From: Patescibacteria group bacterium
Lineage (GTDB): Bacteria > Patescibacteriota > Microgenomatia > Daviesbacterales > UBA10151
NCBI GenBank assembly: GCA_943356485.1
Contig: CALRFD010000006.1
Location: 7,450-71,449, forward strand
Direction of reading: 5' to 3'
DNA length: 64,000 bases
Shown here piece after piece: positions 2,753-52,060 of the stretch. The position numbers and the translations under genes are program-made. A model generated the notes under the pieces. That model saw only the letters and a list, made by a program, of their open reading frames with translations, had not been told where the DNA came from and did not search any database. How positions within the stretch are numbered: position 1 is the first letter of the stretch; each line of letters opens with the position of its first letter.

Positions 2753-4890
2753 TGGCTGTTACTAAAACCAAACGAGATTATCCTCTGGATAGAATCCGTA
2801 ATATCGGAATAATTGCACATATTGATGCAGGTAAAACTACGACTACCGAAAGGATACTTTTTTATACAGGAAGAACCTATAAAATCGGTGATATTGATGA
2901 AGGGACTACTACTACCGACTGGATGGAGCAAGAAAGAGAGCGTGGTATTACTATCGTATCAGCTGCCATCACGACCTTTTGGATTCCAAAGAGCGGACCT
3001 TTTAAAGATTTAGAGACCAGGATTAACTTAATTGATACACCGGGTCATGTTGATTTTACAGCTGAGGTAGAAAGATCATTAAGAGTTCTGGATGGCGGAG
3101 TTATTGTTTTAGACTCTTCTTCCGGAGTGCAATCTCAAACAGAGACTGTTTGGAGGCAGGCTAATAAGTATAAAGTCCCTTTGATTGCTTTCTCTAATAA
3201 AATGGATGTTGTTGGCGCAGATTTTTTAGGTACAATCCAATCTGCCAGAGATAGGCTTGGGGCAAATGCGATTGCTTACAATTTGCCAATAGGTAAGGAG
3301 AATGATTTTAAGGGAGTGGTAGATTTGCTTACAAAAACAGCTTTTATTTGGGAAGGTGATGAAACAGGGGCTAAATTTCATGCAGCTGAGATTCCTCAAG
3401 ATATGGTTTCGGAAGTTGACAGCCATAGAGAAAAATTAGTGGAGGAGATTGCCGGTTCAGATGATGTGTTAATGGAAAAATACCTTGGAGGTGAGGAGAT
3501 CTCAGTTGAAGAGCTAAAAGCAGCTCTTCGAAAAGCAGTTATCGACAATAAAATTGTTCCTGTTTTAGCCGGATCATCCTTGCGGAATAAAGGTGTGCAG
3601 TTAATGCTTGACTGTGTAGTTGAATATTTGCCTTCACCGCAAGATGTGAATGAATTCACCGGAATAAATCCTCAAACGCAGGAGGAAGAAATTAGAAAAG
3701 CTGTTGCCTCCGAGCCTTTAGGCGCTCTGGCTTTTAAAATTCAAGTCGATCCACATGTAGGAAAGTTAACCTATATCAGAATTTACTCAGGTACTTTAAA
3801 GAGCGGAAGCTATGTTTATAACGCCACAAAACAGATTAAAGAAAGAGTCGGCAGGTTGCTACTCATGCACGCTAATGATCGTGAGGAGATTGAAGAGGCC
3901 TATGCAGGGGAAATAGTTGCAGCAGTTGGGCTTAAAGATACAATCACCGGTGATTCACTTTGTGACGAATCTGCTCCTTTAATTTTGGAATCGATTTCTT
4001 TCCCTGATCCTGTTATCTCTCTGGCAATCGAACCAAAAACAAAGTCTGATCAGGAAAAGTTAGGTTATGCTCTGCAGAGACTGGCAGAGGAAGATCCGAC
4101 ATTTAGAGTCAAGTCTGATCCTGAAACACAACAAACAATCATTGCCGGAATGGGTGAGCTTCAACTGGAGATCTTAGTTGACAGGATGAAACGTGAGTTT
4201 AAGGTGGAAGCAAATGTAGGTCAGCCGCAGGTTGCGTATAAAGAAACGATTCAAAAAGAAGCTTTGGGTGAGGGTAAATATATCAGACAAACAGGAGGTC
4301 GCGGACAATACGGACACTGTTTGTTACGTATTGAGCCTCTTCCCAGAGGGCAAGGAAGAGAATTTGTATCAGCTGTTGTTGGCGGATCGATTCCAAGAGA
4401 ATTTATTGGACCGATTGAAAAAGGTGTTATTGAGAAAGAAGATACAGGATTATTAGCAGGTTATCCAGTAACTGACATTAAAGTAACAGTTTATGATGGA
4501 TCTTTCCATGATGTTGATTCATCTGAGATGGCATTTAAGATCGCCGGCAGCTTAGGTTTATCTGAGGCTTCTAAAAAAGCTGACATGATTCTGCTTGAAC
4601 CTATTATGAAGGTAGAAGTTACTACCCCGGATGAATTTTTAGGAGAGATAATTGGAGACTTGTCTTCAAAAAGAGCGCAAATTTTATCATCAGAAACTAG
4701 CGGAAAGGCTAGAGTGATAATTGCTTTGGTGCCTCTGGCTGAAATGCATGGATATGCTACAGCTATCCGGTCTATGTCGCAAGGCCGGGCTACTTACTAT
4801 ATGGAAGCAGATCACTATGAGCCTGTGCCAAGCAATATTACCCAAAAGATTATTGAAACCTCCGGCTTTACCGGACGTGTCGAACACTAA
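2752..4890 (+). CDS. fusA: elongation factor G
   Basis: [15 protein letters not shown]..., 712 aa, all EF-G domains present. Confidence 0.95.
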
Positions 4891-4902
4891 AAGTATTTCA
4901 GT

Positions 4903-5892
4903 ATGATATCTAAAGAGCAGTTAAACCTTGCGGTAGTGCCGGGTGGGAGTATGGGTCAAGCAATAGCTCTAATCGCTGCTCAAAAGGGTCATAATGTCAG
5001 GGTTTATCGAAGAGCGCATGAAGTTGACACCAGAGAAAGAGTTAATCTTCCTGATAATGTTAAAATATTTTCCTCATTGAAAGACACGGTTACGGGGGTT
5101 GATGTTCTTGTTCTAGCTCCGCCTACTCAAATTTTTGAAGAATTAGCCAGAGAGTCATTGTTTTATTTGAAGCGTGAGAGTTTAATTTTAAGCGCTTCAA
5201 AAGGATTACAAAAAGGAACTAATCATAGGCCCTCACAGATATTGGAAAACTTGGATCAGACTTTGCGGCCAAGAATAGCCGTTATGTCTGGTCCTAATTT
5301 AGCTTCAGGCATTCTAAGAGGTGATGAGACTGGAACGGTAATTGCTGCTTATAATTCTAAAGTTGCTAATTATCTTCGGGATAGGCTTGAAAATCCCAAA
5401 TTTATTATTCAAGCAGAGAAAGACCTTATAGGAGTAGAGTTGGGAGGAGCTTTTAAAAATTTAGTAGCCTTGGCTGCAGGTATGTTTGATGAAATAAATA
5501 TGTCAGCAAACACAAAGGCTTATTATATAACCAAGTTAGTAAGCGAATTAGTTGAAGTTGCCCTAAGGCAAGGTGCTAAAAGTTCAACATTCACCGGGTT
5601 GTCCTGGTTGGGGGATATTTTTTTGTGCACTACAGATAATGAAAGTAGAAACTATAGAGCTGGGGAGTTGTTGGTGAAAAATCCAAGGGCAGCTCAGGGT
5701 TTTTTGTCTGAAGATAAACCATGGTTAGCAGAGGGTGTGCATACTATTGCTCCTGCATACGCTTTGGCAAGAGTGAGCAATATAAATTCTACGCCTATAC
5801 TTGATTTGATTAATAACGCAGTATATACAGAACAAAGTCTTGAGGATGCTATTAATAGATTGGGGAATAATCGAGACTACCATGATTCTTGA
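4903..5892 (+). CDS. gpsA: NAD(P)H-dependent glycerol-3-phosphate dehydrogenase
   Basis: N-terminal Rossmann fold; ELGGAFKNLVALAAGMFDE...GLSWLGDIFLCTTDNESRNYRAG matches GpsA VGGALKNVIAIAAG...GLGDLVLTCTS..SRNRRFG. Confidence 0.75.
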   Translation: MISKEQLNLAVVPGGSMGQAIALIAAQKGHNVRVYRRAHEVDTRERVNLPDNVKIFSSLKDTVTGVDVLVLAPPTQIFEELARESLFYLKRESLILSASKGLQKGTNHRPSQILENLDQTLRPRIAVMSGPNLASGILRGDETGTVIAAYNSKVANYLRDRLENPKFIIQAEKDLIGVELGGAFKNLVALAAGMFDEINMSANTKAYYITKLVSELVEVALRQGAKSSTFTGLSWLGDIFLCTTDNESRNYRAGELLVKNPRAAQGFLSEDKPWLAEGVHTIAPAYALARVSNINSTPILDLINNAVYTEQSLEDAINRLGNNRDYHDS

Positions 5893-5924
5893 CAATGCAG
5901 TCTTGAACATGAGAGTCTTAAATT

Positions 5925-6905
5925 ATGGATCAAGTAAATAAAGCTAAAAATTCTTCACTACCACCAATAGGTCAGTTATTTAAAGAGGCCTGGAATACTT
6001 TTAAACGCAGTCTTTTGCAGTTAATTTTATTAAATATTTTAGGAATGGCAGTTTATTTTTTACTGGCTGCTTTGGCATTTGTTATTTTAGTATTAAGCGG
6101 TTTAGGATCCAGCATCCTGCAAAAAGGCTTAATGGGACTAAGTGCAATTACTCCATTATCCGGCATTATTTTTCTTGCAATAGGAGTTATCTCTTTAATT
6201 ATTGCTGCAGCAGCGCAGATTTGTGCAGTCTTAATTGTTAACGATAAAGCACAAACTAAACTAGTTGAGAAATTTAAAAAAAGCTTTAGTTATATCTGGC
6301 CTTTGTTTTTAATTAACTTAGTGACTGGTTTTTTGACAATAGGAGGGTCTTTTTTATTTGTCATTCCCGGAATACTTTTTATAATGCTTTTTTCCTATGT
6401 GCAATTTGAAGTAATTTTGAATAACCAGTTGGGCTTATCCTCCATAAAGCGCTCTGTTGGAATAATCAGTAAAAATTTTGGTGAGATTTTTATCCGGTAT
6501 TTGCTTCTAATTCTGATCTATTTTGGGATATCGATTGTACTTAGCATTTTTAAAAATATTTTGCCACAGGAATTAAAGTGGTTACCAAATATTATCTCCA
6601 GTATCATTCATATGTTCTGGGGTTGGTTTATGTTAGCCTTTAGTATTGTTTTATATAAACAGTCAAAAAGCGTAACAAGCAATGAGGAGGTCAGTAATAT
6701 TATCTGGATTTGGATAGTAGCTGTCTTAGGCTGGTTGATTGCTTTAAGTTTAACTATTATAACCTGGAAAGTGCTATACCCAGAGGTGTTGAAAGATGTA
6801 GAAACTAAACTTCCGCAAACTGTAATTTTAAACTCAGTAAAAGATTTTCCGTTATCAAGTGAGTCCTCGCCTTCAGCGAATAAAAAAACTTTCGGGAAAA
6901 ACTGA
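5925..6905 (+). CDS. hypothetical polytopic membrane protein
   Basis: 326 aa with ~8 hydrophobic helices; no recognisable family. Confidence 0.5.
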   Translation: MDQVNKAKNSSLPPIGQLFKEAWNTFKRSLLQLILLNILGMAVYFLLAALAFVILVLSGLGSSILQKGLMGLSAITPLSGIIFLAIGVISLIIAAAAQICAVLIVNDKAQTKLVEKFKKSFSYIWPLFLINLVTGFLTIGGSFLFVIPGILFIMLFSYVQFEVILNNQLGLSSIKRSVGIISKNFGEIFIRYLLLILIYFGISIVLSIFKNILPQELKWLPNIISSIIHMFWGWFMLAFSIVLYKQSKSVTSNEEVSNIIWIWIVAVLGWLIALSLTIITWKVLYPEVLKDVETKLPQTVILNSVKDFPLSSESSPSANKKTFGKN

Positions 6906-6924
6906 ATGCTGGCAATTGGTCTCT

Positions 6925-7025
6925 TGCATTTTGTTTACAAATGCGATATATTTATAACTACCAGCGAGAAAGAGCTGGATTTTAATGGCCTCTTGCATTA
7001 AAATGCAATTACCGTTAAAATAACA
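6925..7025 (+). promoter_or_regulatory. two tandem promoter-like units upstream of tuf (TTGCAT-17-TATATT and TTGCAT-17-TAAAAT)
   Basis: Repeated CTCTTGCATT -35-like boxes with 17-nt spacers and A/T -10 hexamers; palindrome TTGCATTAAAATGCAA. Confidence 0.35.
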
Positions 7026-7030
7026 AAATT

Positions 7031-8215
7031 ATGGCAGACGCAAAAAAGTTCGATAGAAGTAAACCACACGTAAATATTGGCACCATGGGTCATGTTGACC
7101 ACGGTAAAACAACTCTTACAGCAGCTATAACTACTGTGCTTGCTGGTAAAGGCATGGCAGAAAAAAGATCTGTTGATCAAATTGATAATGCTCCTGAAGA
7201 AAAAGCTCGTGGTATTACGATTAATATTTCTCATCAGGAATACGAGACAGCTAAAAGGCATTATGCTCATATTGATATGCCTGGTCATGCAGATTATATC
7301 AAAAACATGATTACCGGAGCTGCGCAAACTGATGGAGCTATTTTAGTTGTTTCCGCCCCAGATGGTCCTATGCCTCAAACAAGAGAACATTTGTTATTAG
7401 CCCGACAGGTTGGAGTTCCGGCGATTGTAGTTTTCTTAAATAAATGTGACATGGTTGACGACGCCGAACTGCTAGATTTGGTTGAAGAAGAGGTTAGAGA
7501 TTTGCTTAAGAAATATGAATATGATGCAAATTCTCCAATAATTAGAGGATCTGCTAAAAAAGCTTTGGAAGGTGACCCAACAGCTGTAAAAGCCATTGAA
7601 GACTTAATGGATAAGGTAGATGAGTGGATTCCAACTCCTGTTAGGGATAAGGATAAACCATTTTTAATGGCAGTGGAAGATGTTTTCTCTATTAAGGGTA
7701 GAGGAACAGTGGTAACCGGTAGAATTGAAAGAGGAGTAGTAAAAGTTAATGAAGAAATAGAAATTGTGGGAATTAGGCCAACTAAAAAGAGTGTTGTTAC
7801 TGGAATTGAGATGTTTCACAAATTATTAGATCAGGGTGAAGCCGGAGATAATGCCGGAATTTTACTTCGGGGTGTTGAAAAAGATGATGTTGAAAGAGGA
7901 CAAGTTTTAGCCAAACCAGGCTCAATTACTCCTCATTCCGAATTTGAAGCGGAAGTCTACATTCTTTCTAAGGAAGAAGGCGGTAGGCATACTCCATTTT
8001 TCAAAGGTTACAGACCACAATTTTATATCAGAACAACTGACGTGACTGGTGAAGTAACTCTTCCAGAAGGTGTTGAAATGGCTATGCCAGGCGATACAGT
8101 TAAAGTGGTTGGAAAATTAATTACACCGGTTGCTATGGAAGATGGTTTAAGGTTTGCTGTTCGAGAAGGCGGTAAAACTGTTGGAGCCGGAGTTATTACC
8201 AAGATAATTGCCTAA
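7031..8215 (+). CDS. tuf: elongation factor Tu
   Basis: [15 protein letters not shown]..., 394 aa. Confidence 0.96.
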
Positions 8216-27596: not shown

Positions 27597-28709
27597 ATGG
27601 CAAATATCATAACAACATTTACATCTGAATCAGTTTGCTCAGGCCATCCGGATAAAATTTGTGATGCAGTTTCCGATGCTATAGTAGATGCAGTATTGAC
27701 TCAAGACAAACACGGCCATGTTGGGGTTGAAACCATGGCTGCTTTTGGTAAAGTGATTATTGCCGGTGAGGTGAAAGCAAAGGGCAAAACTATTAACTAT
27801 GAAAAAATTGCCAGGGAACAAATTAAAAGACTGGGATATACTGATCCAAAATTTAATTTTTATTATGATTCACCGGTAGCCATGCATGTACACCAGCAAT
27901 CTCCGGAGATTGCTGTGGGAGTAGATAGTGATGGAGCCGGAGATCAGGGAATGATGTTTGGATACGCATGTACAGAGACAGAAGAGCTAATGCCTCTTCC
28001 GATAACTTTGGCGCATCAGTTGGCTAGAAGAATAGATCATGTTAGGGAAGATAAAATTTTAGATTATCTTCGTCCGGATGGAAAAACTCAGGTTACAGTT
28101 GAATATAAAAATGGTAAACCGGTGGCGGTAAGCCATGTAGTAGTTGCTGTTCCTCACAAGGAAAATATTGGCTTGGATCAGGTTAAAAAAGATGTTTATG
28201 AAAAAATAGTTACACCAGTTTTGGCAAAGTATGGCTATAAAGTTTCAATTAAAAATTTAATAGTAAACGGTACTGGTGTTTGGCATAACGGCGGACCAGC
28301 TGCAGATTGTGGTGTAACGGGCAGAAAAATTGTAGTGGATGGATATGGCGGATATGCTAGGGTTGGGGGGGGAGCGTTTTCCGGCAAAGACCCGACAAAG
28401 GTAGATAGATCAGGTGCATACGCCGCCCGTTTCATTGCAAAAAATATTGTAGCTAATAAGTTGGCGAAAAGAGTAGAAGTTAGACTGGCATATTTTATCG
28501 GAGCTAAAAAGCCATTAATGCAGCAAGTCGAAACTTTCGGTACCAATAAAAAGAGCCAGAAAATAATAGATAATTTTGCCGCCAAAATTCTGGATACTTC
28601 AGTAACAGGTATTATAAAAGGGTTGGATTTGTTAAGGCCAATATATTTACCAACTGCTGCCTATGGTCATTTTGGCCGGGATGAATTTCCTTGGGAAAGA
28701 ATTGTTTAG
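27597..28709 (+). CDS. metK: S-adenosylmethionine synthase
   Basis: MANIITTFTSESVCSGHPDKICDAVSDAIVDA...; the track ORF starts upstream at 27561 but the conserved N-terminus and riboswitch terminator place the start at 27597. Confidence 0.9.
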   Translation: MANIITTFTSESVCSGHPDKICDAVSDAIVDAVLTQDKHGHVGVETMAAFGKVIIAGEVKAKGKTINYEKIAREQIKRLGYTDPKFNFYYDSPVAMHVHQQSPEIAVGVDSDGAGDQGMMFGYACTETEELMPLPITLAHQLARRIDHVREDKILDYLRPDGKTQVTVEYKNGKPVAVSHVVVAVPHKENIGLDQVKKDVYEKIVTPVLAKYGYKVSIKNLIVNGTGVWHNGGPAADCGVTGRKIVVDGYGGYARVGGGAFSGKDPTKVDRSGAYAARFIAKNIVANKLAKRVEVRLAYFIGAKKPLMQQVETFGTNKKSQKIIDNFAAKILDTSVTGIIKGLDLLRPIYLPTAAYGHFGRDEFPWERIV

Positions 28710-30265
28710 CCAAACATTATCCAGTATCTATCAGTTTGCATGAATCTTGCTAGCGGAGTTAAGTTGTTTAGATTTATACCAATTATTTTTGCAAGTAATT
28801 CCATGTCTACATTTTTTCTAACGATATCTGCTAAATGGTTATATTCTTCTCCAGCTTTCATATTTTCCTCCAGCGGTAATACTACGCCTTTTTGTCTGGC
28901 TATATTTTCTAAAATGATTCTTCTGGGGCCTTGATTTTGAAGTATGCCATGGTAATAAGTGCCGATAACTGCTTTGTCGACTGATAGGCTAATTGTTTCT
29001 ATAGGAGATCCGTCGATCATTTCCGTTGTGGCCATGTGAATTTCATATCCTGTGATGCTCATGTCTTTTGCCCCCTGTAATAATCCATAATCGCGAGTTA
29101 TTCTGCTCATTGTTTGCTGTGTTATTTTTTCTTTTCCTTTTTCAAATTTTGTGATTACAGGTAAAAGATCTAAGCCTCTTACTTCAGCTTGTCCTGATTC
29201 AACTCCTTCAGGGTCTAAGATAACTTTTCCCAGCATTTGAAACCCTCCGCAAATCCCGATTACTGCTTTGCCATCCAGGGCATGTTTTGTTACTAAATCT
29301 GCCAGTCCCTTTACTCTTAACCAGGTTAAGTCTGATACAGTGCTTTTGCTTCCACCCAATAAAACTAAGTCAGGATTTCCAAATTCTTCCTGTCTATCAA
29401 TAAAACGGACTTGTACCCCCGGGGTTCTAACTAAAGGATCAAACTCGTCAGAATTTTGCAAAGAGGGTGTCCTTAAAACAACTGCATCCAATACAGCATT
29501 TTCTTTAAGTGTATTTTTCCTTGATAATTTATATGTATCTTCATCCGGAATACCATGATCTTCCATAAATGGAATAACACCCAGTATTGGAACTCCTGTA
29601 ACTTCGATTAACTCCTGTAGAACAGATTCCAGATATTTTCTTTCACCTCTAAATTTATTAATAATTAAGCCTTTAATTAACTCTCCAGCTTTTGGATCCT
29701 TTCTTCTGATAATATTCACTGTTCCTTCAAGGGATGCAAAAACTCCTCCGGGATCGATATCTCCTACTAAGATAATTGGAGCTTTTGCATATTTTGCCAT
29801 TCGCACGTTTGCTATATCTGTGTCCATTAAATTTGGTTCAGCAGGGGAACCAGCTCCCTCCATAATAACGACTTCGTATTGGGAAGCAATAATATCAAAG
29901 CTTTCCGTGGCAATAGACCAGAGTCTATCTTTGTAATATTGTTGTTTTAGCTCCTCAGTTGCAACTTTCCCCCGAACAATTAGTTCTCCTCCTACTTTGC
30001 CGTCGGGTTTTACTAAGATTGGTTGCATATCAACTGTTGGCTTAACTCCCGCTGCAATAGCTTGCACAATTTGTCCTCTGCCAATTTCTCCCCCATCTTC
30101 GCTAACTCCTGAATTTAGACCAATATTTTTTGCCTTAAATGGAGCAACAGAAAACCCATCCTGGTATAGAATTCTGCAAAGTCCGGTTGCAACTATACTT
30201 TTCCCTACATTAGAAGCAGTGCCGAGTATCATTATTGATTTGATTTGTTTTCTTTCGGCGTTCAT
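28706..30265 (-). CDS. cobQ: cobyric acid synthase CobQ-like amidotransferase (CobQ/MinD-type ATPase domain + GATase-3 domain)
   Basis: N-terminal [11 protein letters not shown]...PFKAKNIG...DGGEIGRGQ and C-terminal [10 protein letters not shown]...GYEIHMA match CobQ/CbiP. Confidence 0.7.
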
Positions 30266-30408
30266 ATATTTATCTTTTCTCCTTCATAAGTTGTAAAGCG
30301 TTTGCCGCATTTTAGACATTCGCGCCTTCTTCTTATAAGATTTTTATTTTTAACTGTTCTGGTGTTAACAGCTTTTGTTTGGTTTACTCCGCAATATGTG
30401 CAACGCAT
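30262..30408 (-). CDS. NrdR-like zinc-ribbon-only mini-protein (48 aa); stop overlaps the cobQ start (ATGA)
   Basis: Hand translation [48 protein letters not shown] resembles the NrdR N-terminal zinc ribbon (MxCPFC...RRRREC..C..RFTTYE) but lacks the ATP-cone. Confidence 0.5.
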
Positions 30409-30539
30409 AATTTTTATCGAGATGAGGGGAGTAGTATAAAAAACATCTCCTTTGACTCGAAGGATCAGTAAAGCCTTTAAAGTTAGGTCCGACTACAACG
30501 GTTGCGGCACAGTTCTGAGTTTCACAGTATTCAAAACTT

Positions 30540-30620
30540 TAAGAATTAGTTTTATTGAACTAAGGTCTAAGATAGCAGTTATGAAAAATAGGGTCAATAT
30601 ACTGTATGCAGTATACGAGT
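30540..30620 (-). promoter_or_regulatory. putative promoter (TTGACC-17-TATCTT) overlapped by perfect palindrome TATACTGCATACAGTATA
   Basis: The 7-bp-arm palindrome abuts the -35 box upstream of the nrdR-like/cobQ leader, operator-like. Confidence 0.3.
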
Positions 30621-30622
30621 AA

Positions 30623-31558
30623 TCATTTCTGTTTATTTCTGCTTAGAAAAATTACACCAAAAAACATTGGGACAAAGGCAAGCAATTGATATATAGTGGG
30701 AGTTTTTTGTAAAAGTATAAATGCAAAAATTAATGTTATTAAAGGAGCAATGCTGCCAAGGGCAGTTGCTTTCATTACACTGATTCTATGAATTCCCTCT
30801 ACCCAAAGAACTTTTGAAAGACCTAATACAAGTACACCGTTGATTAAGAGAAAAATCAAAGAGGTATTAAAACTGTCATAAGAAAAAGAATTCTGAAATA
30901 GGAATGCAAGAAAGAAAACTACGATAGAACTGAGGAAACTCCTAATAAAAAGAATAGTTTCGCTGCTTACTTTAGATCTTGCTCTTTTTTGATAAAAATT
31001 ACCAAATGGGGCAATAAACGCTCCGGTCAATACTAACAGATCACCAATTTGGAAACTGTGAATACTAGGATAGAAGATGATGACGACACCTATAACTATT
31101 AAAATAGCACCAACAATATGTTCTCTAGGCAGGTCATCTTTTTTCCAAACATGAAAATATAAGTAACTAAAAAATATTTCAGATAATGCAATAATACTGG
31201 CGTTTCCTGGACTGGTGTAACGTAATCCAAAAAAGAACAAAAGATAAAACAGAATACCCAGAATTGTGGTGGCAATAAGTATATCTGCTAAAGCAGAGGT
31301 ATTTCTTAACTCCTGCCATTTATGTTTATAAATAATGATTGAACCAAAGAAGATACAGGAAAATAAAGTACTAAATCCAAGTGAAATAAGAGAGGGTAGC
31401 TTGTTTTGCGACAGAGTTGTCATTATAGGAAATAATCCCCAAAGTATGGCTTCAAAAAAAATAAGAAGTTCCCCAACTCTGTCTTTACCGATTTTCATAT
31501 ATTGAGAGGTATAAGAAACAATGTCGGGGATGGGAGGATTAAACTCCCGACTCCGCAC
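30623..31558 (-). CDS. DMT-superfamily (EamA-like) transporter, 10 TM
   Basis: Two EamA-like repeats. The true start is probably the internal Met at ~31495 (MKIGKDRV...) because the 5' end of the track ORF overlaps a tRNA-like element. Confidence 0.6.
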   Translation of the reverse strand: MRSREFNPPIPDIVSYTSQYMKIGKDRVGELLIFFEAILWGLFPIMTTLSQNKLPSLISLGFSTLFSCIFFGSIIIYKHKWQELRNTSALADILIATTILGILFYLLFFFGLRYTSPGNASIIALSEIFFSYLYFHVWKKDDLPREHIVGAILIVIGVVIIFYPSIHSFQIGDLLVLTGAFIAPFGNFYQKRARSKVSSETILFIRSFLSSIVVFFLAFLFQNSFSYDSFNTSLIFLLINGVLVLGLSKVLWVEGIHRISVMKATALGSIAPLITLIFAFILLQKTPTIYQLLAFVPMFFGVIFLSRNKQK

Positions 31559-31594
31559 CCCCAGCGCGGCGTGTTATCACTATACTAATCCCCG
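31526..31594 (-). tRNA. tRNA-Pro(GGG)-like element with degenerate D-arm and non-canonical T-loop (possible pseudogene/remnant)
   Basis: Minus strand: CGGGGAU-UA-[no D stem]-CCGCG-CUGGGGG-UGCGG-AGUC-GGGAG-UUUAAUC-CUCCC-AUCCCCG. 7-bp acceptor, anticodon GGG with U33/R37; the 3' half resembles bacterial tRNA-Pro. Confidence 0.35.
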
Positions 31595-33581: not shown

Positions 33582-34289
33582 ATGCAACATTCATTTAGTC
33601 CTAAAAATTTTAGCTCACAGCAGTCACCTACAACTAATGATGAACCTGTGACTATTTCATCCGGAGGAGACCTGCCCGCTAGTGCTTCGCAACAAGCGAT
33701 GCAAGCGGGTTTAGCCAAAAGAGAAGGAATTTTAGAAGAAAGAGAAAGACAAATTGCTGAGAAACAAAGGTTAGTCGAAGAAAAGCTCGAAAGTTTAGAA
33801 AAACTTCGAAGAGACCTGGTAGAAAAATTAGAAAAAGTATCGAAATTTTCGGCGGAGGATGCTAAAAAGATTCTTTTAGAAAATCTGGACAAAGATTTAA
33901 GCGCAGAAATCTCCAAAAAGGTTAGAGAGGCAGAAAATGAAATAAAGTTGCAGGCTGATGATAAAGCAAAGAATATTTTAGCCGATGCAATAATACATGG
34001 AGTTACTGATTATGTTTCTGAATTCACGACTTCAAAAGTTAGACTTCCGGATGAGGATATGAAGGGTAAGATAATTGGAAAAGAAGGTAGAAATGTTCGT
34101 ACTTTTGAACAAGTTACGGGAGTTGACGTGGTAATGGATGATGAGATTCCGGATACTTTAATCCTATCCTCATTTGATCCTATTAGGAGGGAGATTGCTA
34201 AAGTCTCCCTAGAGAGATTAATTGAGGATGGCAGGATTCAACCGCAAAGAATAGAGGAAATCGTTGCAAAAACGCAAAACAGATATTAA
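33582..34289 (+). CDS. rny: ribonuclease Y, N-terminal part (coiled-coil + KH domain); broken from the HD part by a frameshift
   Basis: ...[70 protein letters not shown] matches the RNase Y KH region. Confidence 0.8.
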
Positions 34290-34971
34290 TAAGATAATGC
34301 GTTATGCAGTTGAAAAATTATGTCACGATGTGGGAGTATATAATTTACCGGTGGAATTGATTGATCAGTTAGGTCGTTTTAAATACAGATATTCATATGG
34401 ACAAAACTTAATATTGCATACTCAGGAAGAAACGCAGATAGGTGTAGCTTTGGCTCATATGCTTGGGGCAAACGTGAATACTGTCAGACTCGGTTGTTTG
34501 TTTCATGATATCGGTAAAATAGTGGCTGATGAAGAAGGCTCACACGTTGATAAAGGTGTGGCTTTAGCAAAGAAGTTTGGTTTACCGGAAGAAGTTATTA
34601 ACTGCATTGCCGAACATCATGAAGATAAGCCCTTTTCTTCGGTTGAATCAATTATCGTTTGTATTGCTGATTCAATCTCTGGCGGAAGACCAGGGGCAAG
34701 ACATGAAAACGTCCAGGATTATATAAAAAGGTTGTCAGATATTGAAAAGATCGGGATGTCTTTTGAAGGTGTAGAAAAATGTTTCGCTGTACAAGCCGGA
34801 AGAGAGGTTAGAGTTATTGTTACCCCTGAGAAAGTATCCGATGATGAACTGCCTAAATTAACCCATGATATTGCAGATCGAATTTCTAAAGAAGTTATGG
34901 TTCCCGGGACTGTTAGAATTACTGCTATTAGAGAAACAAGAGTCAGTGAAAGTACGAACTCTGTTCAGTAG
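34264..34971 (+). CDS. rny: ribonuclease Y, C-terminal part (HD domain) in +1 frame
   Basis: ...[21 protein letters not shown]...LFHDIGK...AEHHED... matches the RNase Y HD domain; the frame opens at 34255. Confidence 0.8.
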
Positions 34972-44271: not shown

Positions 44272-44279
44272 TATTTGTG

Positions 44280-44598
44280 CCTAGGAAGCTAGTAAGCCAG
44301 ATTCTGTTATTAGATGATAATTTATCTAATGCTCTTGATTTCGATCGTATGGCGAACAGCCTGATCGGTTCTAAGATTGCAGCGGGGAGGATTGCCCCTC
44401 GCTACGCTCAGGATAAACCCTCTACATAACGAGTACCCATTAGCTTGGTAGTTTCACTTGGCGCAACCCAAATCTTCACTGTTGCTCTAAACTGGGTCTT
44501 ACGACCTCCGTCTTACAACGGACACCCTTGTTCTATGCTGTCTGGACTTTCCTGAGCGTACCGCATGGTACACCCTAATCATCCTTCTTCCTAGGCAG
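44280..44598 (-). ncRNA. rnpB: RNase P RNA (minimal bacterial type, ~320 nt)
   Basis: Minus strand: P1 CCUAGGAAG/CUUCCUAGG closes the ends; P3 hairpin GUACC-AUGC-GGUAC. P4 5' strand CAGGAAAGUCCAGAC pairs with 3' strand ACAGAAUCUGGCUUA; relative to E. coli GGAAAGUCCGGGC/ACAGAACCCGGCUUA the changes are compensatory. CAUAGAACAAGGGUGUCC and GUGAAACUACC resemble the M1 RNA P5/P10-12 regions. GC-rich island in an AT-rich spacer. Confidence 0.85.
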
Positions 44599-51184: not shown

Positions 51185-52060
51185 ATGCAATTTATAAGTA
51201 AAAAACCTGAATTTGAATATTTAAAAAACAAATGGGGTGTTCGTCAAAAAAAAGCCCAAAATAATTTTTGGGATAAACATGCAGATGCATTAAAACATAT
51301 TGCGCTAGGATCCTTAGGTGGATTGATCTTACTCTCCCCTCCTTCTCAGATTCAGATACCGGAACATAATTTATTGGTCAGCAGTGATGATATTATAAAG
51401 GGTTTTGATAAAAATATACTTTTAGCTAAAGTTTTATCTGATAAATTACCTGAGCCGGTTGCTCCACTGGATTCTAAATTAGAGAAAGATATTACTGATA
51501 TTTTATCTTCCCAATTTGGTTTTAAAGTTACGTCAGAGTTAGATAATATTAAACTAAACAGAAACTATGGATTTATAGGGGGAGAACAGCATTTATATCG
51601 GTATCCGGGAGATAATCTATATGCTCACGCTGAAAATGCGATTGATTGGGCAAAATATGGCGATGCGGGAGTGGCGCCTGGTTTAGGAGCATGGGGGTAT
51701 TTTGCTACCTCCAAAGAAGCATTTACAAAGCAAGATCAACAGAGAGAGCGTTATTATTTAGCAATTCAAACATTTTTAGCACCAGGATTTTCTGAAAATG
51801 TTGATAGGTATAGGGATTTTTTTAAGTTTAGAAAAATGCTGGTAGTTAACCCTATAACTGGACAGGCGGTTGTTGCGGTAATAGGGGACGCTGGACCAGC
51901 TGAATTTACAGGTAAGCATTTAGGAGGATCTCCTGAAGTTATGGATGCACTAGGTCTTGCGACAGGATCCAGAAAAGGTGCAGTATTGTATTTTTTTATC
52001 GATGATTATGAAGATAAAATTCCACTGGGGCCTGTTAAAGTAGCAGATACAAAGGCTTAA
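51185..52060 (+). CDS. membrane-anchored hypothetical protein with C-terminal RlpA-like double-psi beta-barrel-like segment
   Basis: TM near the N-terminus; C-terminal VVAVIGDAGPAEFTGKHLGGSPEVMDALGL resembles the RlpA/DPBB signature (D.GP...G...S.A...LG). Confidence 0.35.
   Translation: MQFISKKPEFEYLKNKWGVRQKKAQNNFWDKHADALKHIALGSLGGLILLSPPSQIQIPEHNLLVSSDDIIKGFDKNILLAKVLSDKLPEPVAPLDSKLEKDITDILSSQFGFKVTSELDNIKLNRNYGFIGGEQHLYRYPGDNLYAHAENAIDWAKYGDAGVAPGLGAWGYFATSKEAFTKQDQQRERYYLAIQTFLAPGFSENVDRYRDFFKFRKMLVVNPITGQAVVAVIGDAGPAEFTGKHLGGSPEVMDALGLATGSRKGAVLYFFIDDYEDKIPLGPVKVADTKA

Follow-up and report, generated by a model that had tools for sequence, protein, structure and literature searches.

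The window analysed here is a stretch of 64,000 nucleotides (nt) from a bacterium of the Patescibacteria group (order Daviesbacterales; contig CALRFD010000006.1 of assembly GCA_943356485.1, positions 7,450 to 71,449, forward strand). Its RecA groups in a 90% cluster that carries the name Daviesbacteria/Microgenomates. On the minus strand of the window, a small gene for a 48-residue zinc ribbon, derived from the repressor NrdR, lies between a predicted cobalamin (vitamin B12) riboswitch and cobQ, the gene for cobyric acid synthase. The elements in question are, in 5' to 3' order on that strand:

30598..30615, minus strand: near-palindrome TATACTGCATACAGTATA, with 8 of 9 pairs, directly 5' of the -35 box
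30569..30597, minus strand: sigma-70-like promoter, TTGACC-17 nt-TATCTT, with TG before the -10 box
30436..30565, minus strand: aptamer of a cobalamin riboswitch of the adenosylcobalamin (AdoCbl) type, assigned by Rfam match, homology and covariation
30409..30449, minus strand: degenerate expression platform, with GAGAUG (30449..30444), CAUCUC (30424..30419), a U-run and a 10-codon open reading frame (ORF; 30446..30414)
30262..30408, minus strand: ribbon-only NrdR paralogue of 48 amino acids (aa), with C3/C6/C31/C34, K12, N15, R17, R26-R29 and R37
28706..30265, minus strand: cobQ, cobyric acid synthase of 519 aa, with CbiA and GATase_3 domains; its start overlaps the stop of the ribbon gene

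Cobalamin riboswitches, CobQ and NrdR are already well known. The new part is an NrdR-derived mini-protein that heads B12-riboswitch operons, and no paper that connects a ribbon-only NrdR to a cobalamin riboswitch was found. We are confident of the descriptive account (the gene, the riboswitch, the linkage of the two, cobQ and its cassette). The function proposed for the ribbon protein is more tentative.

A ribbon-only protein derived from NrdR

A first-pass annotation of this DNA, made from the sequence without database searches, had translated 30262..30408 by hand, and the 48 residues were reproduced exactly. The same annotation took the peptide for an NrdR-type four-cysteine ribbon that lacks the ATP-cone, and proposed a profile search as a check. 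In a hidden Markov model (HMM) search, the peptide matches Pfam PF22811 (Zn_ribbon_NrdR) over the whole model (1-42/42), with 66 bits against a cut-off of 27.2 bits and an E-value of 2.8e-18. It aligns to residues 1-43 of the solved E. coli and S. coelicolor NrdR proteins, and its AlphaFold model (predicted local distance difference test, pLDDT, 86.5) superposes on the NrdR ribbons with a TMq of ~0.8 and a root-mean-square deviation of 1.3 A. The NrdR equivalog TIGR00244 scores 48.5 bits, below its cut-off of 124.65, because the ATP-cone is missing. No ATP-cone (PF03477) was found in the frames 3' of the ribbon stop or anywhere in the window. A weak BLAST match to an ATP-cone at 51371..51562 was unsupported by HMM search or Pfam and was discarded, as was recoding of the UGA stop of the ribbon gene, where read-through would give 9 extra codons and no domain.

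The stop codon of the ribbon gene (TGA, 30264..30262) overlaps the start codon of cobQ (ATG, 30265..30263) in the sequence ATGA, just as the first-pass annotation had seen. The public annotation of the contig does not include the ribbon ORF, and the protein is not in the public set. No Shine-Dalgarno (SD) motif precedes the ribbon ATG; only ~30% of the larger ORFs genome-wide have an SD-like motif, 6-15 nt from the ATG, and so its lack here is not unusual.

How widespread is such a protein? HMMER, run exhaustively against 1.84 billion representative proteins, gave 3379 ribbon matches, and only one of these, P0176 (49 aa, from locus L166), is a short specific relative. With a profile made from the two peptides, P0176 scores 120 bits and every other protein 75 bits or less. 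The two peptides also have in common a set of derived, NrdR-atypical residues (T4, Y5, G7, V8, Q10, T11, A13 and T16), and on this evidence they make up a clade of their own, small and distinct, among the zinc ribbons derived from NrdR. Word-indexed protein searches returned mostly nrdR fragments that end at contig edges, and P0176 surfaced only through HMMER. A single-protein scan of GTDB genomes and a viral scan gave no match, while the 80 loci returned by a metagenome scan with the peptide all carry full-length nrdR.

A comparison of the two ribbon genes over 43 codons points to strong constraint on the protein. Synonymous sites are saturated (proportion of differences, pS, 0.72) and the nonsynonymous proportion (pN) is 0.18, for a ratio of nonsynonymous to synonymous change (dN/dS) of 0.09 (Fisher p 1.8e-7); the differences at codon positions 1, 2 and 3 number 12, 4 and 22, respectively. 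The tails that follow TTYE are in different reading frames in the window and L166, so that only the ribbon itself is conserved and selection would act on the ribbon. From this pattern, the ribbon ORF is a genuine protein-coding gene under purifying selection. The first-pass annotation had considered that the peptide might turn out to have no similarity to the NrdR ribbon and no conservation; the profile match, the conserved copy in L166 and the purifying selection all speak to the contrary.

The ribbon gene of L166 has a setting much like that in the window. The order of elements there is the same near-palindrome and promoter, an AdoCbl aptamer (33.2 bits), an intact terminator, the ribbon gene, and then genes for a DUF4430 protein, an alpha/alpha-toroid protein and a DUF6580 membrane protein; the near-palindrome and -35 box read TATACTATATACAGTATA-TTGACT. 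The DUF4430 gene starts 6 nt 3' of the ribbon gene, and its product is secreted. DUF4430 is the domain found at the C-terminus of transcobalamin (PMC4350170), and by its gene content the L166 operon looks like one for B12 capture, that is, for B12 binding and uptake. The three-protein operon 3' of the riboswitch and ribbon (L166 1853..3998) deserves attention in its own right. Its alpha/alpha-toroid protein (446 aa) has a Pro/Thr/Ser-rich linker and a C-terminal transmembrane anchor, and together with the DUF4430 protein it resembles a split, surface-anchored, transcobalamin-like B12 binder.

A cobalamin riboswitch leader that has lost its terminator

The first-pass annotation described a structured leader upstream of the ribbon gene and suggested a comparison with cobalamin riboswitch models, and that comparison identified an aptamer. 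Rfam RF01482 (AdoCbl) matches 30560..30438 with 37 bits (E 8e-5; gathering cut-off 50), RF01689 gives 26.8 bits (gathering cut-off 36.5), and model R1, built in this analysis, gives 114 bits. The homologous aptamer of locus L002 scores 41.1 bits for AdoCbl-II, above the gathering cut-off of 36.5, and those of L168 and L001 score 41.8 bits (AdoCbl) and 30.7 bits, respectively. In an alignment of five loci, compensatory changes occur in 8 of the 18 predicted pairs, and the complementarity of the L5/L13 kissing loop covaries as well (C-G, A-U, U.G). Judged alone, the window copy is below threshold in both Rfam models; because it is homologous to the above-threshold copy in L002 and because its pairs covary, we assign the leader as a cobalamin riboswitch aptamer, with corrinoid binding predicted. 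As for the structure of the leader, the window sequence folds no better than shuffled sequence (z -0.16), but homology and covariation do argue for a structure. The promoter upstream, including the TTGACC -35 box already noted in the first-pass annotation (TTGACC-17-TATCTT at 30597..30569), has the same position in L166, L001 and L168.

Beyond the aptamer, the window departs from its relatives. Strong intrinsic terminators lie 3' of the aptamer in L166, L168, L001 and L083, with 9-10 bp of stem followed by a U-run, whereas the window has no such fold (z -1.0) and no significant alternative. Relative to L166, ~32 nt are gone from the window, namely the antiterminator and the 5' arm of the terminator. 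The remnant, which the first-pass annotation had singled out as GGAGAUGUUUUUU, comprises the 3' arm and the U-run and holds the start of the 10-codon upstream ORF. The 10-codon ORF and the GAGAUG and CAUCUC arms are indeed present as first described, and the U-run of this ORF and hairpin aligns with the T-tract of the terminators in the relatives. We discarded the idea that the ORF is conserved: L166 has no counterpart, and the GGAG of the window ORF abuts its AUG, as against the usual genomic SD spacing of 6-15 nt. The upstream ORF and hairpin look like a by-product or remnant of the terminator deletion, rather than a conserved device.

The ribbon gene goes with the riboswitch, not with cobQ

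In the first-pass annotation, the locus was described as a truncated NrdR joined to a cobQ operon. The ATGA juxtaposition stands, but the tie is to the riboswitch. The closest CobQ homologues all have a homologous aptamer directly 5' of cobQ, and in L001, L002, L083 and L168 the riboswitch is followed by cobQ with no ribbon ORF (4/4). Identity of CobQ to the window protein is 57% in L001, 56% in L002 and 49% in L168. An alignment-based scan returned ordinary CobQ loci only (38-46% identity; Dehalococcoidia, Firmicutes and others), none with a ribbon nearby. Since the ribbon of L166 heads a B12-binding and uptake operon, and since the four cobQ relatives are ribbon-less, the ribbon gene is best classified as a module of the riboswitch-led unit and not of cobQ. 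The alignments of the ribbon-less loci are ambiguous as to a clean deletion of the ribbon, and as to gain versus loss. Long CobQ homologues were tested as possible fusions to the ribbon, and are not.

cobQ and its accessory cassette

The CobQ protein consists of a CbiA-type ATPase and a GATase_3 domain, and passes the cut-offs of two equivalogs (NF001989, 515.6 bits with a cut-off of 273; TIGR00313, 444.7 bits with a cut-off of 309.9). Its P-loop (G15..K22) and catalytic C339 are invariant in the family alignment, and its nearest relatives outside the candidate phyla radiation (CPR) are the cobyric acid synthases of Dehalococcoidia, at ~45% identity. A GGAG at 30282..30279 lies 13 nt 5' of the ATG, and M12 is a possible alternative start. 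By these features the gene is assigned as an authentic cobyric acid synthase gene. A non-cobalamin substrate had been suggested in the first-pass annotation; with both equivalog cut-offs passed and a riboswitch 5' of cobQ in every readable relative, which ties CobQ to corrinoids, that suggestion is not sustained. As to the accompanying question about other cob or cbi genes, none was found among the ORFs scanned in the window, and the riboswitch is the sole B12 link of cobQ there. A role for CobQ in salvage or repair of corrinoids is speculation. Nevertheless, an orphan riboswitch-controlled cobQ in an accessory cassette raises the question of salvage or repair of incompletely amidated corrinoids.

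In two of the related loci, cobQ is followed by a gene for a protein of ~500 aa (L001 2949..4457 and L168 3862..5025; 52% identical) with no Pfam or NCBIfam match. This protein is absent from the window, and may be a partner of the orphan CobQ. A weak match of the L001 downstream protein to the window was spurious.

Two further features flank the operon:

30623..31558, minus strand: gene for an EamA-family transporter, in the upstream part of the accessory block
31523..31594, minus strand: tRNA-Pro(GGG), flanking the cobQ cassette

The mechanical GTG start of the EamA ORF overlaps tRNA-Pro(GGG), and the real start is probably an internal ATG (MKIGKDRV...). In the window, the interval between metK and recA holds the block of cobQ, ribbon, riboswitch, EamA and tRNA-Pro (28706..31594); in two close Daviesbacteria, with RecA 88% and 92% identical, the same interval holds an Exo_endo_phos gene instead (L169 4935..6820, together with an acylphosphatase and a 267-aa ORF, and L173 6018..6809). 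Because it is replaced in these close relatives, the cobQ cassette is accessory. Its GC content is not anomalous.

A proposed role for the ribbon protein

In the structure of S. coelicolor NrdR on DNA, each 16-bp box is bound by two ribbons; R12, R26-29 and R37 hold the DNA backbone, D15 and R17 read the bases, and ribbon pairs bury ~1200 A2 (PMC9110341). The backbone arginines are kept in both mini-proteins, save that lysine stands at position 12 in the window and at position 26 in L166, and the extent of the ribbon-ribbon contact in NrdR makes dimerisation of a ribbon-only protein plausible.

We propose that promoter, cobalamin riboswitch, 48-aa ribbon and cobQ constitute, in this member of Candidatus Daviesbacteria (CPR), a corrinoid-responsive operon in which synthesis of the ribbon would be gated by B12, the protein being made when corrinoid is scarce. 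The ribbon keeps its four zinc cysteines and the arginines (R26-R29 and R37) with which NrdR grips the DNA backbone. Missing is the ATP-cone, the part of NrdR that senses nucleotides and builds the box-bridging tetramer. Such a small protein would most likely be a regulator that binds nucleic acid and acts in trans, probably with two ribbons paired on one palindromic site, and the cis control exerted by the riboswitch could thereby be extended to other promoters. Its targets might be the near-palindrome beside its promoter, or boxes of the NrdR type at other places in the genome. That the protein binds DNA and dimerises, where it binds, and how a leader without a terminator exerts control are all things that we infer. 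Taken as a whole, this reading of the operon, with a B12-gated ribbon-only NrdR as a trans regulator, seems to us evenly balanced between right and wrong; the trans-regulator mechanism by itself is tentative, and the scales tip somewhat against it.

A number of observations count against the proposal. The window is without the terminator that its relatives have kept, and riboswitch control at this locus is putative. One base-reading residue has changed in each member of the clade (D15 to N in the window, R17 to G in L166), which makes specificity for NrdR boxes doubtful. Full-length NrdR needs two boxes and cannot bind a single one (PMC12051234). The window contains no nrd gene among the ORFs scanned and, in answer to a question posed in the first-pass annotation, no full-length nrdR. 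Just two instances of the ribbon clade were found, both from uncultured organisms, and the junction of ribbon and cobQ is present in one assembly only.

Could the near-palindrome next to the promoter be the operator? Its centre is ~44 bp 5' of the inferred start site. The first-pass annotation called it perfect and adjacent to TTGACC; it does abut the -35 box, but only 8/9 pairs form, and 8/9, 6/9 and 4/9 pairs are kept in L166, L001 and L168, respectively. The case for an operator is weak. Palindromes of this quality occur at chance frequency (12 18-mers in the window, against 11.6 expected from shuffles), there is no compensatory change between the two ribbon-bearing loci, and the right half is conserved in ribbon-less promoters as well, so that the near-palindrome may be no more than part of the promoter. 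From the NrdR-box consensus it differs at 4 positions, a likeness that is not significant; with the frequency at chance level, we rejected its likeness to an NrdR box as evidence. No second copy occurs in the window. We regard the near-palindrome as a candidate operator, or as a conserved upstream part of the promoter. NrdR-box matches with at most 3 mismatches to the consensus number 9 in the window, versus 12 expected, and form no box pairs. A matrix derived from nrdR loci was abandoned, with only 2 box pairs being too few.

The likeliest alternative, itself a special form of regulation in trans, gives the ribbon protein a different target. As an anti-NrdR or ribonucleotide reductase (RNR)-rewiring microprotein, it would block the assembly of NrdR tetramers by pairing with the ribbons of the full-length protein, or would occupy NrdR boxes, such that RNR genes like nrdJ respond to B12 scarcity. 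B12 riboswitches are known to precede B12-independent RNR operons (for instance nrdABS of Streptomyces), which would favour a connection of this kind. The tetramers of NrdR rest on pairwise ribbon contacts of ~1200 A2 (PMC9110341), and such contacts would offer a route to inhibition. Locus L127, on a low-GC metagenome contig, also fits: along 3865..8126 it carries paired NrdR boxes, nrdR, the B12-dependent nrdJ, a riboswitch of the same variant as in the window, a PduO-type adenosyltransferase gene and a second riboswitch. This is circumstantial support, in that L127 appears to be a B12/NrdR/RNR neighbourhood in organisms of this kind. (In the second riboswitch of L127, the 3' strand of P13 contains the SD of an ORF without assigned function.) Against this alternative, nrdR and nrdJ are both missing from the window, the base-reading residues are altered, and a ribbon-only inhibitor has no experimental precedent; we consider it unlikely. 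A kindred version, in which a micro-NrdR is made only with the riboswitch open and either occupies NrdR-type boxes as a nucleotide-blind dimer or caps the ribbons of full-length NrdR, is doubtful to a like degree. If true, it would couple the expression of RNR and other genes to B12 supply in ultra-small, B12-scavenging CPR bacteria, and no protein transcription factor module would have been known before it to serve a B12 riboswitch in the building of a regulon.

Perhaps the peptide itself is unimportant, and the ribbon gene is a cis-acting leader cistron whose riboswitch-regulated translation is passed downstream by coupling or by protection from Rho. The gene is the first cistron in both loci, the next gene overlaps it in the window (ATGA) and follows it after 6 nt in L166, and the missing terminator makes control at the level of translation plausible in the window. 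It is difficult to see, however, why coupling would need the strong amino-acid constraint on a DNA-binding fold, and the ribbon-less relatives regulate cobQ directly by a terminator. We hold this explanation to be improbable.

Less probable again is a non-functional relic, that is, a 5' fragment of nrdR caught by recombination between riboswitch operons and read to the first stop, with the ATGA arising by accident. The ribbon is missing in four cobQ relatives, its C-terminal tail is not conserved and overlaps an AT-rich stretch that resembles the 5' region of L002 cobQ, the terminator is deleted in the window, and the ORF is uncalled in the public annotation of the contig, all as a relic would have it. 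A relic would not be expected to show a dN/dS of 0.09 with saturated synonymous sites across two independent loci, nor to keep all four cysteines and RRRR/R37, nor to have derived residues that define a clade, nor to match in length (48 and 49 aa) and stand first in the operon at both loci, and we give this account very little credence. Finally, an assembly chimera of an L166-like uptake operon and a cobQ operon from one community or genome, for which one can point to the similarity of promoter and aptamer repeated across operons, to the single contig with the junction and to the variable interval that houses the cassette, is the least probable of all, as the place to expect a mis-join is within the shared aptamer and not in the AT-rich stretch of ~20 nt that follows the ribbon, and the promoter and aptamer of the window resemble now the cobQ loci and now L166 more closely, block by block, without an abrupt break.

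If the ribbon protein is a regulator, a riboswitch could recruit a stripped-down domain of a housekeeping repressor and broadcast the status of a cofactor in trans, and the ribbon-only gene would be a natural experiment on the NrdR ribbon without its ATP-cone. The operon would also illustrate the layout of a B12 regulon in CPR bacteria that have reduced genomes and scavenge B12. Whatever the function, the gene draws attention to conserved ORFs of <50 aa, a class passed over by automatic annotation on this contig.

Other features of the window

Several observations were made away from the operon. The gene for RNase Y (33582..34971, plus strand) is broken in two, with ORFs at 33582..34289 and 34264..34971 that overlap; in L169 and L173 it is a single gene of 444-448 aa, and the split in the window would reflect a frameshift, pseudogenisation or an assembly error. 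A class A RNase P RNA at 44277..44594 (minus strand; 93.8 bits, E 2.9e-27) is just below the gathering score of 100 and is missed at default settings. A 291-aa ORF with no family match (51185..52060, plus strand) lies between secD and secF. Several genes have a TATAAT-like box directly 5' of the ATG, which suggests that leaderless or short-leader mRNAs are frequent.

Comparison with known systems

NrdR itself (TIGR00244; structures 7P3F, 9FVR and 9GEX) is an ATP/dATP-sensing repressor of RNR operons. The mini-protein has in common with it the ribbon of ~43 residues, two CxxC motifs, RRRR, R37 and the predicted fold. Unlike NrdR, it has no ATP-cone, and hence would have no nucleotide sensing and form no tetramers that bridge two boxes; its gene is found among B12 genes downstream of a cobalamin riboswitch, rather than among nrd genes; and one of D15/R17 is replaced in each member. 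Other NrdR-like ribbons without an ATP-cone occur in P0038 (from a phage-like locus), in P0333 (which also matches Ogr/Delta) and in the tandem-ribbon proteins P0177 and P0194. These show the NrdR ribbon to be a mobile module, and they are without the derived residues of the window and L166 peptides. No riboswitch was found next to L084 (a phage-like locus) or L085. The tandem NrdR-type ribbons of P0177, P0179, P0180 and P0194 are natural single-chain ribbon pairs; one of these proteins has an ATP-cone, one has an unrelated C-terminus, and in P0194 the ribbons interrupt an FGE-sulfatase domain.

Cobalamin riboswitches (Rfam clan CL00101: RF00174, RF01482 and RF01689) are found before cob genes, btu genes and genes for B12-independent isozymes. 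The leader in the window resembles the clan in its conserved core, its B12-box region, its L5-L13 kissing loop and its association with B12-related genes, and its relatives use an intrinsic terminator. It differs in its sub-gathering score and in the loss of the terminator, and the first gene that it would regulate encodes a mini-protein that putatively binds DNA, a product not usual in a B12 regulon.

The closest parallel in logic may be found among regulatory RNAs. In Listeria, AspocR/PocR is under the control of a B12 riboswitch, and so is EutX/Rli55 in Enterococcus and Listeria. In those systems, as in the one proposed here, a B12 sensor acting in cis sets the production of a regulator acting in trans, and the regulon is widened in this way. 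AspocR and EutX/Rli55 are RNAs that act on protein regulators, whereas the product here would be a small NrdR-derived protein.

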